This document shows positions 12,001 through 15,000 of a stretch of 27,818 nt of DNA, one piece after another. The stretch comes from a virus (lineage: Duplodnaviria > Heunggongvirae > Uroviricota > Caudoviricetes), in IMG/VR virus record IMGVR_UViG_2740892369_000014. One strand, given 5' to 3'. Each line of letters starts with the position of its first letter. Within the stretch, counting starts at the first letter, position 1. The position numbers were made by a program.

Positions 12001-15000
12001 TCAGCCATTTTGTTCTTCCTCTTCGTCTTTTATTTCGTGATATGAATAATTGCAGTAGTTAAAGAAAATATCTTTTGCTTCGTCATGTATTTCATCAGGC
12101 GTCGCATCATCATCCACTTCGAATTCATCCTCGAAATCTCCACCGGCTATTCCCGTTTCAATAATTATTTTAAACTTTCGCATTTAACTACCGCCCTTTC
12201 GGGCGGCCTCCTGACATTAATCGTTGTGGTAACTCATGGCTTCATTTGCAACATCAACCGGATCAACCTCCCACCAGCAATAATTTGGTGCGTTTCCTTC
12301 AGGTGTCCACGGTTCTAATTCATTTTTTGCCGCATTCTCATCGCCAGTAATTTTAAAAATCTGCTCAGAGAATTTTCTTGCCCACTCGTTATATTTTTCC
12401 GCATTAATGGCTTTCTGTGTATTTAACATAAATATACCTCCAGTTCAGGATTAGATTTTATTTACAGCGCTAAATTTATTTATTCAGTTCTGGATTTTGT
12501 CGCCCTGCGTATCCGCGCTTTCGCGTTACGTTCAATCTGAATTAACTTTTCTATATTTTTCCGCCTTTCCTGTTCCTCCTGGCGCAATAGCCTTACATCA
12601 TCTGCCAGTCTGGTTTCTCTTTTCGCCACAGAGAGCATCCAGTCAAACGGCTCCACAACCGCACCGCAGATTTTACAGCGGACCTGGCGCTCTTTTTCGT
12701 CAACCCGAACAGAGGCGTGATGACAATATGGTCTTTCCGATGGCTCATAAAGAAAATTAACCTGATTACGAGGGTCATCCTCTTTTACCGGAAATAAAAC
12801 GATATTGCTTAACTCATCCTCTGGTTTTATTTCCATGCTCCTCTCCTTTGATGCGAATGCCAGCGACGCGTAATGCGTGTTCTAGGTCAATCAGGTAAAG
12901 CCAACTGCCATTTTCTTTAGGTATCATGACATGTCGCTCATCTGCATTTATCGGGTGTCCATATCGAAGGTCGTAGCGAGTCGGTAATTGAACTTCCCGC
13001 GCATCCAGTTCAGCAATACGCTTGCTCCCATCAGAGATAACGCCTTCGTAATACTCACGCTGCTCGTTGAGTTGTGATTTTGCTTCTTCCAGTCCATCCA
13101 GCAAACCAGCGATAATATCCGCTTCCCGATGACGGATATGACGCTTAAACGCAGCAAGAGCCGCATCACAATCCCGTTCAGCATTTGGGCTGTCCGGGGT
13201 AGCCTGATACCACGCCAGCGTCGACTGATAGTTTTGTGCTGCCTCACGAAGCGCCTCATAGTTAACCTCTCTCATCGAGCCACCTCCTGATAAATCACCG
13301 CATGCCCCAGTTTCTCCGCCAGTGCCAGCTCTGCCTTAGCGCCCGCTGACCGCTGCCAGCCATTCAGCATGTAAATCGCATCCACACAACGAATCATTGC
13401 CATGCAAATATCCATGTAGTGCGGCTGTGTCAGCCCGTCCGGAAGTACTGCCGGAGTTAAGACGGTATGCCCTTCCCGTTTCAGTTCCTCTTCCGCCTTG
13501 TGAAACGCCTCACGGTTGAAATTTTCATATCCCGTCATTGGACCGGCAATATAAACTCTCACCCTCACTCCATCACCTCCTGAAAGTTTCCCCGATAGAA
13601 CGCCAGCACACGCTGCATAACTTCGCTCTGGCGGCACTCACGACAAATTATGTTCTGCCGTCTGTTGTAACGACGTATTTCTCCGTCAGGTAACTTTCGA
13701 ATCAGTGTCGGGTCAGCAGCCTTCTCCGGTGTCTTACGCCATACGCGATACGCCTGCTCTGATGGAAATACCCCGCAACCAGAGAGCCAGACATCACCAC
13801 TGGCCGCAAGCGCACCAGATAAACGACGAATAGCGGTCTTACTGACACCCGTTTTATCTGCCAGTTGTCGAAAAGTTTCTCGTCCGCTCAGGCGCACGAA
13901 TTCCACAATGCGCGCCTTCACTTCTTCCCGCTCTTCTGGTGTAAATTCTTTTGCCATAAGCGCCTCCGGCAATCACTTTTCCGATACAACACGGCGGGAA
14001 GAATCAGTAATCTGTCGAACAATATCCCGGTGCTTGTTCAGCTCCCGCAGCGCGGCGCAGACTCGCTCCCACTTCTGAACCTGACCTTTTGCCCGGCGCA
14101 GCTCGCGGTTAGCCACATGCAGCGATGGTAAAATCAGACCATCCGGATGTTTTCTGGTGAACGACGGCTGTGACTGCACTGTGACCGCCACACTTTCCGT
14201 TTTTATTTCTTCCTGTGTTTCTGCTTCCCGAACTGGTAACGCAACACCTGCTGGCTGAGGAAAGGCTTTACCATCGGTTTCCGCTACGGATGCAGCTTCC
14301 GGCTCTGCCGGTAAATCAGCGCCCGGTATGCAGTAACGAAATTTACCGCCCTGATTCACGCGAATCAGACGCCCTTTGCTGATTACCATGGCCAGCGATG
14401 AATTCGCCCGGCGGGAGGTAATCCCGAACATCAGTGCCAGCTCATCCGCCGTTTGTGGGCCATGTTGTTCAATCGCCTCAGTCAGCATTTGCGCTGTCAC
14501 TTTCGGTACCGGTGACACCGGTTCACTTTCACCAGCCTGAATCAGCCACCACATCGACCCCTTGTTATCCGCTTCACCGCGGCGCTTCAGTTTCCACAGT
14601 TCGTTGACCGCATCTTCACGGCTGATTCCAAGGCGGGCCGCCACTACCTGTGAAGAGGCTCTTTTCAGTGCTTTCAGTGCGTCAAATACGGTTTCCATTA
14701 AAATTTCCTCCGACAAAATCGTTTCTCAGATTCAAATAAAACCAGCTGCCTTCCGGCGTTCGTATTCCTGTTTCAGCCGCTCAATTGGCGTTGGCCCTTG
14801 CGGGTGTTTCGCCCCTTCCAGTTGTCGTCGCACTGGCGGAACACTCATCCCGTTACCAACATGCTTTGCCCATTTCGTCAGTTGCCGTTCTGCAAGTAGT
14901 TTTAACTCACCCTGCGTCATCTGGCGCTCAATCCCTCTGGTACGCATTTCGAGGCAGATGTGGTACAGCACAGGCTGTGGCCACGGGTATTTATCACTCC

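Follow-up and report, generated by a model that had tools for sequence, protein, structure and literature searches.

Three open reading frames (ORFs), tightly packed head to tail, were found by reading of the sequence and a Pfam scan in the interval 13272-14698 (minus strand) of the viral record IMGVR_UViG_2740892369_000014. The window analysed here is a 27,818-nt stretch of this record, and all coordinates are window positions. We read the three as accessory genes of the ren/nin type that act independently of one another. The last of them, a DUF4406 gene, is read as encoding an N-glycosidase of 2'-deoxynucleoside 5'-monophosphates (dNMPs). For this reading as a whole, we put the chances slightly above even. 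In 5' to 3' order, the genes are:

13973..14698, minus strand: DUF1627 gene, 241 aa (Pfam PF07789, E 3.8e-83; phrog_630, E 1.3e-120)
13565..13957, minus strand: DUF977 (LygF) gene, 130 aa (Pfam PF06163, E 2e-41, 141.7 bits; phrog_142, E 3e-43)
13272..13568, minus strand: DUF4406 gene, 98 aa (RefSeq WP_001266133.1; Pfam PF14359, E 4e-37; phrog_355, E 1.4e-47)

These coordinates equal the RefSeq gene ends to the base, and RefSeq names the coding sequences (CDSs) by their DUF families. An earlier description, made from the sequence without database searches (the sequence-only reading), had proposed a protein like the nucleoside 2'-deoxyribosyltransferases (NDTs) coupled to two winged-helix proteins downstream of the replication genes. 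Its features were all confirmed to the base, and they lie on the minus strand.

The DUF4406 protein matched PF14359 with 126.9 bits against a cutoff of 22, and positions 2-91 of the 91 in the profile were covered. An exhaustive profile search gave 18,042 cluster representatives of the family at E <= 1e-3. The AlphaFold2 (AF2) model, built from a 27-sequence alignment, had a pLDDT of 90.8 and a pTM of 0.84. It contained four strands and three helices in the order strand-helix-strand-helix-strand-helix-strand, and the chain ended after strand 4.

In a Foldseek search of the PDB, NDTs came first (2a0k and 8pqr), followed by DNPH1, MilB and BcmB, with a probability of 1.0 and a query-normalised TM-score of about 0.75. 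The best structural matches also included DUF1937. Because the targets are longer by half, the target-normalised TM-score reached only about 0.5. With the flavodoxin-like alpha/beta fold of this model, DUF4406 falls within the N-(deoxy)ribosyltransferase-like superfamily as a minimal member. The family match and the fold agreed with the NDT-like character that the sequence-only reading had given to the 98-aa protein.

Conservation was counted in 259 family sequences and in 12 sequences spanning six phyla. Y6, G9, P10, N18, F22, Y51, S74, G76 and E80 were near-invariant from Enterobacteria to Firmicutes, Actinobacteria, Chloroflexota and Planctomycetes. The codons of the putative nucleophile and of the N-terminal Tyr are at:

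13329..13331, minus strand: codon of Glu80, the presumed nucleophile, in the motif S74-A-G76-A-K-A-E80 (from conservation and DNPH1 spacing)
13551..13553, minus strand: codon of Tyr6, in the motif Y-I-A-G-P-M-T-G (position equivalent to DNPH1 Tyr24 and DmtZ Tyr6)

E80 stands where the helix that follows the third strand begins. The sequence-only reading had tied its proposal to a conserved catalytic Glu, and E80 answered to this: it was present in 252 of 258 family sequences (97%) and invariant in the 12 sequences from different phyla. Position 6 was Y in 235 of 254 family sequences and F in 16. S74, six residues before E80, was Ser in all but one of 258 (257/258).

Much of this pattern is seen in the 2'-deoxynucleoside 5'-phosphate N-hydrolase DNPH1 (Rcl; PDB 8qhr, 4fyi and 2khz). 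In the DNPH1 triad of Y24, D80 and E104, the last is the nucleophile on which the covalent deoxyribose-phosphate intermediate is built, and S98 is the ligand of the 5'-phosphate (PMC10603095). The N-terminal Tyr of DNPH1 stands in a Y-x-x-G motif, and Y6 of DUF4406 aligned locally with Y24. The spacing of Ser-x-Gly-x-x-x-Glu in DUF4406 is identical to that of S98...E104, and E80 likewise aligned locally with E104. The DNPH1 sequence used in this comparison was confirmed against PDB chains.

By analogy, the best functional precedent for DUF4406 is DmtZ, an NDT-superfamily protein of Z-genome phages (Gordonia phage Ghobes; the N-terminal domain of gp53 of Arthrobacter phage Wayne). DmtZ is by experiment a dAMP-specific N-hydrolase, and it can also use the Z base, 2-aminoadenine, as an acceptor of deoxyribose 5-phosphate (PMC12884076). 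Like DUF4406, it is phage-encoded and has a Tyr6, and R-S-W-G-V-P-A-E of Wayne DmtZ is in register with R-S-A-G-A-K-A-E of DUF4406. On the other hand, homology between the two was not detectable by a hidden Markov model (HMM; E 0.19 in a one-sequence search). DmtZ is also longer (about 145 aa, five strands), has Asn as the middle triad residue, and is linked to PurZ, dUTPase-like and Z-base genes, none of which was present at the DUF4406 locus of the window.

A common name of the family implies a different activity. A true NDT would swap bases between deoxynucleosides for salvage, and phrog_355 is named 'nucleoside 2-deoxyribosyltransferase', a name that is common in phage records. NDTs were also the best Foldseek matches, and other DUF4406 members matched PF05014 (Nuc_deoxyrib_tr), at only 17-23.5 bits, which is sub-threshold. 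The names, however, stem from annotation transfer and not from assays, and the window protein itself had no PF05014 match at E <= 0.01 and did not reach the gathering threshold of 28.8 bits.

The residues also spoke against a true NDT. In NDTs (PF05014; PDB 1f8x, 2a0k, 8pqr and 6evs), the Glu nucleophile lies in the equivalent helix, but the sugar-binding Asp (Asp92 of L. leichmannii NDT, a ligand of the sugar hydroxyl) is replaced in DUF4406 by an invariant Ser, as in the 5'-phosphate-binding Ser of DNPH1. DUF4406 also has no counterpart of the C-terminal part with which the NDT site is completed. The same line between nucleoside transferases and nucleotide hydrolases is drawn in PMC12884076, where the Asp/Asn of NDTs is noted to be missing from the hydrolases that act on dNMPs. 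We consider a true NDT unlikely. Because of the Tyr/Ser/Glu match, the DmtZ precedent, and the Ser in place of the NDT Asp, DUF4406 was read instead as a minimal dNMP N-glycosidase similar to DNPH1 and DmtZ.

Two of the other structural relatives were also compared. MilB and BcmB (PDB 4ohr and 4jen), which are CMP N-glycosidases, have Phe where DUF4406 has Tyr, and gave no sequence-level match. Sikowitz et al. reportedly found in 2013 that a Phe-to-Tyr change shifts the preference from ribo to 2'-deoxy substrates. By this analogy, the Tyr suggests deoxy substrates for DUF4406. DUF1937 (PF09152; PDB 1t1j, a structural-genomics protein), with which the DUF4406 protein gave a weak Pfam cross-match (E 4e-4), is similarly small. 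It is a separate family and itself uncharacterised, so no function was gained from the match.

As a dNMP N-glycosidase, DUF4406 would be a homo-oligomeric retaining enzyme with three residues in common with DNPH1-like enzymes: the Tyr near the N-terminus, a Ser of the phosphate type and the nucleophilic Glu. Attack of Glu80 on C1' of a dNMP would release the base and leave a covalent deoxyribose-5-phosphate-enzyme intermediate. This intermediate would then be hydrolysed or handed to another base. The effect would be an editing of the nucleotide pool during lytic growth. Judged from the sequence and the model, nucleotide-pool activity, as put forward in the sequence-only reading, is a reasonable proposal. 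For the DNA-modification role offered beside it, nothing was found in support.

Several observations weigh against the assignment as a dNMP N-glycosidase. The HMM of the 259 family sequences gave local alignments with DNPH1, L. leichmannii NDT and Wayne DmtZ that were in register but non-significant, and the residue equivalences therefore rest on the fold and short motifs. Searches of PDB sequences with the protein and with the family profile returned only noise (3ndn and glucokinase regulatory protein), and the match that hhalign reported between the family alignment and human DNPH1 was meaningless. At 98 aa against a core of about 145 aa in DNPH1, with no significant sequence similarity, DUF4406 is about two thirds the size of DNPH1 and the NDTs, and it lacks the C-terminal segment with which these supply active-site residues to the partner subunit. 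It has no helical extension like that of DNPH1, which donates S128', the second phosphate ligand, across the dimer. In an alignment by eye, the E55/H56 element of DNPH1 (T-E-H) was apparently replaced by a conserved N/T-P-A loop.

The equivalent of the general acid (Asp or Asn on the second helix in the superfamily) is also uncertain, and could be either D53 or C55. D53 is present in the window protein but in only 180 of the 259 family members (about 70%). By spacing to the next strand, D80 of DNPH1 and the Asn of DmtZ may correspond to C55, which was C in 214 and D in 19 of the family sequences. The window allele carries Thr38, whereas 92% of the family has Asn. The open literature on DUF4406, PF14359, phrog_355 and anti-defence NDTs gave incidental mentions, and no functional study or assay was found in it.

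The DUF4406 protein is encoded by a 297-nt CDS and begins with MRVRVYIAGPMTG. The signals at its start are:

13565..13568, minus strand: GTGA overlap between the GTG start of DUF4406 (13568-13566) and the TGA stop of DUF977 (13567-13565) (sequence and RefSeq CDS ends)
13576..13581, minus strand: Shine-Dalgarno sequence AGGAGG, 7 nt before the GTG and inside the end of the DUF977 gene (sequence)

The RefSeq/PGAP CDS (WP_001266133.1) has the same ends as this ORF. Homologs begin at the equivalent position, mostly with ATG, as M-K/R-[IV]-Y-I-A-G-P (M-K-I-Y-I-A-G-P-M-T-G). In an alternative ORF of 121 aa, the 23 added residues fall outside the Pfam match. For these three reasons, the GTG start is well supported at the sequence level, in agreement with its use in the sequence-only reading.

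The other two genes also have upstream ribosome-binding sequences: GGAGG 5 nt before the ATG of DUF977, and GGAGGA 7 nt before that of DUF1627. The three genes are separate, all have ribosome-binding sites of their own, and they follow O-like and P-like replication genes. The stop codon of DUF4406 is in turn overlapped by the ATG of an Ead/Ea22-like gene (ATGA at 13272-13275). Since this junction overlaps likewise, the four-base overlaps are a general style of the operon, and not peculiar to the DUF977-DUF4406 junction.

The state of the prophage and of the allele bears on whether DUF4406 functions here at all. It might be a decaying passenger with no current function, as the prophage looks defective (an integrase split by IS3 and several pseudogenes) and the allele departs at residue 38 (Thr) from the Asn found in 92% of the family. 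The ORF, however, is intact, with a strong ribosome-binding site, and retains all near-invariant motif residues. The identical ORF occurs in well over 100 complete genomes, and position 38 varies among N, S and T in otherwise conserved E. coli alleles. Of all the explanations weighed here, we consider a decaying passenger the least probable.

The DUF977 protein gave several sub-threshold matches to helix-turn-helix (HTH) and winged-HTH Pfam families in residues 6-59. It was 29% identical to lambda Ren over 90 columns (BLASTP E 3e-9). phrog_142, named 'Ren-like exclusion protein', holds both proteins, and DUF977 homologs in Shigella phages carry the same name in RefSeq. By its sequence and position, the DUF977 protein is a homolog of lambda Ren. 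The Pfam matches together with this homology support the winged helix that had been assigned to it.

The resemblance to lambda extends to the gene order, as ren also lies downstream of P. The differences are that Ren has 96 aa instead of 130, and that ren directly follows P, whereas the DUF1627 gene intervenes here. Lambda Ren is described as 'likely involved in DNA replication' and as interacting with Rex proteins. Protection from Rex exclusion, a genetic phenotype, is to our knowledge known only for lambda ren.

The DUF1627 protein matched PF07789 with 277.4 bits (cutoff 28.1). Its residues 1-139 were 57% identical to residues 1-151 of YdaW of the K-12 Rac prophage (b1361; E 1e-55). By sequence, it is the full-length form of YdaW, which occupies the same place after the replication genes but is truncated after about residue 151. 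The K-12 Rac prophage has lost the downstream DUF977 and DUF4406 genes, and phage Rac-SA53 has retained the full trio after its replication genes. Both identities, the lambda ren homolog and the full-length YdaW, had been missed in the sequence-only reading.

Some phage annotations treat YdaW as a homolog of DUF977. This was rejected, as direct comparison gave no similarity between YdaW and DUF977. Some phage records, that of Rac-SA53 among them, apply the names 'ydaW' and 'LygF' to different DUF1627 and DUF977 members, which can mislead literature links.

The AF2 model of DUF1627 was weak overall (pLDDT 61, from a shallow alignment). It contained a three-helix HTH unit at residues 1-45 and, at 66-125, a clear winged helix (pLDDT about 80). 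Residues 131-191 were disordered, and a single long C-terminal helix at 193-240 probably mediates oligomerisation. All the leading Foldseek matches were winged-helix proteins (ArsR, MarR, TFE and AspA types), with weak E-values of 3e-3 to 6e-2. We interpreted this YdaW-type protein to have two HTH-type DNA-binding units followed by the long helix. Of the two winged helices that the sequence-only reading had ascribed to it, the one at 66-125 was recovered in this weak model, and residues 1-45 formed a three-helix HTH unit. To call both upstream proteins winged-helix proteins is essentially correct, but the double winged helix of DUF1627 is only partly borne out.

The association of the three genes was examined in two sets of loci. 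The close-relative set comprised 74 viral-contig loci with DUF4406 identity of at least 88% and enough upstream sequence. DUF977 was adjacent in 61 of them and DUF1627 nearby in 48, with both in 35, and at least one of the two preceded DUF4406 in every locus (74/74). The partner alleles were 41%-100% identical. In 13 of the 74 loci, DUF977 was replaced by an unrelated 84-aa HTH protein (Sigma70_r4/HTH_7-like), the gene of which still overlapped the start of DUF4406. Allele identities were uncoupled, at 88-99% for DUF4406 versus 49-100% for DUF977.

The diverse set comprised 75 genomes, from Enterobacterales to Planctomycetes and Firmicutes, with DUF4406 identity of 39-65%. The upstream gene was DUF977 in three of them and DUF1627 in none. 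Among GenBank phage records, 308 contained DUF4406 (Vibrio 124 and Arthrobacter 88; also N15 gp57, phiKO2 gp58, PY54 and D6), and 25 contained DUF977, all from Escherichia or Shigella. Only four contained both, and the two genes were adjacent in two of these. Lambda has ren without DUF4406, and PPompW prophages have DUF1627 followed by an unrelated gene, again without DUF4406. Because the co-occurrence vanished outside E. coli-type prophages, the adjacency of the trio is a lineage-specific mosaic synteny of E. coli Rac/lambdoid prophages, and not an obligate functional unit.

These counts bear directly on the idea that the three genes form one module, in which the winged-helix proteins would direct or regulate DUF4406 at replicating DNA, or neutralise it in the way of an antitoxin. 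The tight packing with its 4-nt overlap would fit such a module, as would the constant presence of DUF977 or DUF1627 ahead of DUF4406 in the E. coli-type loci. Beyond this one lineage, however, the co-occurrence collapsed (3/75, 0/75 and 4/308 phage records), and lambda ren and the PPompW DUF1627 occur without DUF4406. Within the lineage, DUF977 is replaceable by an unrelated HTH gene with the same overlap, allele identities are uncoupled, and a like overlap joins DUF4406 to the unrelated Ead-like gene. We consider a single module very unlikely. The functional coupling proposed in the sequence-only reading is not upheld, with the association absent outside E. coli-type prophages, DUF977 replaceable, and the overlap generic.

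A further point in favour of a module came from retrons. In type II-A retron effectors, such as RcaT of retron-Sen2 and that of Ec86, an NDT-like domain is joined to a DNA-binding domain, and the trio shares this pairing of an NDT-like N-glycosidase fold with a DNA-binding module. In the preprint of Bobonis et al., K-12 ydaW, a homolog of the DUF1627 gene, is listed among the prophage genes that block the toxicity of RcaT, the NDT-like toxin of retron-Sen2. In the retron effectors, however, both modules are parts of a single fusion protein of host defence, which is bound to msDNA (multicopy single-stranded DNA), whereas the genes of the window are separate, their linkage is not conserved, and they gave no PADLOC match. 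In the ancestral Rac layout, a YdaW-type gene lies two genes upstream of an NDT-fold gene. This arrangement may be a coincidence.

A bolder proposal would build on it. DUF4406 would be a large class of phage enzymes more compact than DNPH1 and DmtZ, either dNMP N-glycosidases or phosphodeoxyribosyltransferases, and in the course of infection would remove or exchange a certain deoxynucleotide (a modified dNMP or an immune-signalling nucleotide of the host). Perhaps the YdaW-type protein would also be a party to this NDT-centred conflict, for instance as a binder of NDT-fold proteins. We regard this proposal as improbable.

The neighbours of DUF4406 in the diverse genomes were varied. Apart from the few DUF977 genes, those upstream included C5 or N6 DNA methylases, DnaB, P, exonucleases and others. 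Those downstream included lysozyme, DUF968, an Rv2179c-like exonuclease, integrase and a NinI-like phosphatase. In an Edwardsiella prophage, DUF4406 was located in the early left 'ea' region beside the integrase, and in two metagenomic phages it followed Lar and Dam.

DNA methyltransferase genes were repeatedly seen beside DUF4406. By raw count, a C5 methylase was upstream in 4 of the 75 diverse loci. N15 gp57, the DUF4406 gene, overlaps the C5 methylase gene gp58, and Dam was one or two genes upstream in several loci.

Longer members of the family were also inspected. No second Pfam domain was found in 44 longer DUF4406 representatives, except one DUF551. In Planctomycetota genomes (seven loci), DUF4406 carried DUF6378 as a C-terminal fusion partner (E about 1e-20). 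DUF6378 is associated with phages, and related PHROG families are labelled 'phosphofructokinase' or 'MazG-like'; no Pfam cross-match, NCBIfam match, PDB match or literature was found for it. gp55 of Mycobacteriophage Milly has an unassigned N-terminal part of 150 aa beyond DUF4406. The 'MazG-like' label in Pseudomonas phage Orimi01 was rejected, as it came from a mis-split annotation of a plain DUF4406 ORF.

The setting of the family in phage genomes allows for another function. DUF4406 could be a phage counter-defence protein acting on a nucleotide immune signal or on NAD-derived molecules, either as a TIR/SLOG-like hydrolase or as a binding 'sponge'. The family is overwhelmingly borne by phages or prophages, in accessory early regions, and beside anti-restriction-type genes (Lar, Dam and C5 methylases) in several phages. 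Its closest sequence families, however, are DUF1937 and Nuc_deoxyrib_tr, not TIR, and the invariant Glu favours catalysis over sequestration. PADLOC models gave no family for DUF4406 at E <= 0.01, and only noise-level matches for DUF977 and DUF1627; nor was DUF4406 named in any published anti-defence screen that we found. The NCBIfam search gave nothing useful. We hold a counter-defence role to be a little less likely than a true NDT, and keep the dNMP N-glycosidase as the favoured assignment.

The genes that flank the interval place it within the prophage. They are:

15186..16196, minus strand: O-like replication initiator of the YdaU type (DUF1376 and DnaT DNA-binding domain, Pfam E 9.9e-26 and 3.1e-17; RefSeq CDS)
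14732..15193, minus strand: replication protein P-like gene (Phage_lambda_P, E 4.9e-15; RefSeq 'replication protein P')
12814..13275, minus strand: Ead/Ea22-like gene, the next downstream of DUF4406 (Pfam Ead_Ea22, E 6.2e-11; RefSeq CDS)

The O-like and P-like genes overlap by 8 nt, and DUF1627 starts 33 nt past the stop of the P-like gene. The gene order was repressor, cro-like, cII-like (YdaT), O-like, P, the trio, Ead-like, HNH, ParDE, DUF968, RusA, a Q-region gene, tRNAs and lysis genes. This is the order of an early right arm of the lambdoid/Rac type, and the interval is thus the counterpart of the ren-nin region of lambda. A PR-like promoter was located upstream of the cro-like ydaS gene. 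The scan for promoters and terminators inside the interval gave nothing above shuffled expectation, and no convincing internal promoter or terminator was found. We infer that the interval would form the start of a ren/nin-like accessory region, and that it would be expressed in the early rightward operon, of a Rac/lambdoid prophage of Shiga toxin-producing E. coli (STEC). The 1.8-kb stretch around it occurs with 100% identity in many STEC chromosomes (O26, O103 and other E. coli), and at least 80% of this stretch was present in about 441 of 5426 complete E. coli genomes.

Other observations were made in the vicinity. A weak terminator-like hairpin with a T-run lies at 14741-14757 (minus strand) in the 33 nt that separate the P-like gene from DUF1627; such sites were not above shuffled expectation in the region. 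RefSeq names the gene at 12814-13275 'sigma-E factor regulatory protein RseB domain-containing'. This looks like over-annotation, because the MucB_RseB match is only E 5.3e-5 and the Ead/Ea22 match is better (E 6.2e-11).

Two small RNAs scored above the Rfam gathering score: the antisense RNA DicF (75 bits) at 19475-19526 (plus strand), adjoining dicB/ydfC, and STnc100 (104.7 bits) at 4543-4715 (minus strand), near a SASA-family esterase gene. Three prophage tRNA genes (Arg, Arg and Ile in RefSeq) lie at 5488-5736 (minus strand) downstream of the Q-region gene, a position typical of Stx-type lambdoid prophages. RefSeq also annotates two toxin-antitoxin pairs, ParD/ParE within the nin-like region (about 9419-9981, plus strand) and a HigB/HigA-like pair beside the repressor (about 17543-18207, minus strand). 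The integrase is interrupted by an IS3-family element (about 22907-25239), with several pseudogenes nearby (RefSeq), which make it likely that the prophage is defective. Past its integrase end, at about 25536-26795 (plus strand), are an EspV fragment and an EspF-repeat-containing protein, which are type III effector-like cargo.

The three genes are already catalogued and extremely common, and are ordinary nin-like accessory genes. The analysis fixed their identities, as a lambda Ren homolog, a full-length YdaW and a DUF4406 protein with an intact catalytic motif, and removed the suggestion that they work together as one machine. What remains of value is the DUF4406 family. It is very large and phage-borne (N15, phiKO2, PY54, D6 and Rac), has a DNPH1-like Tyr/Ser/Glu set, and is predicted to be an enzyme. 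DmtZ has recently been shown to hydrolyse dAMP and rebuild dZMP (PMC12884076). If the activity predicted for DUF4406 is true, it would be another way for ordinary temperate phages to edit nucleotide pools.

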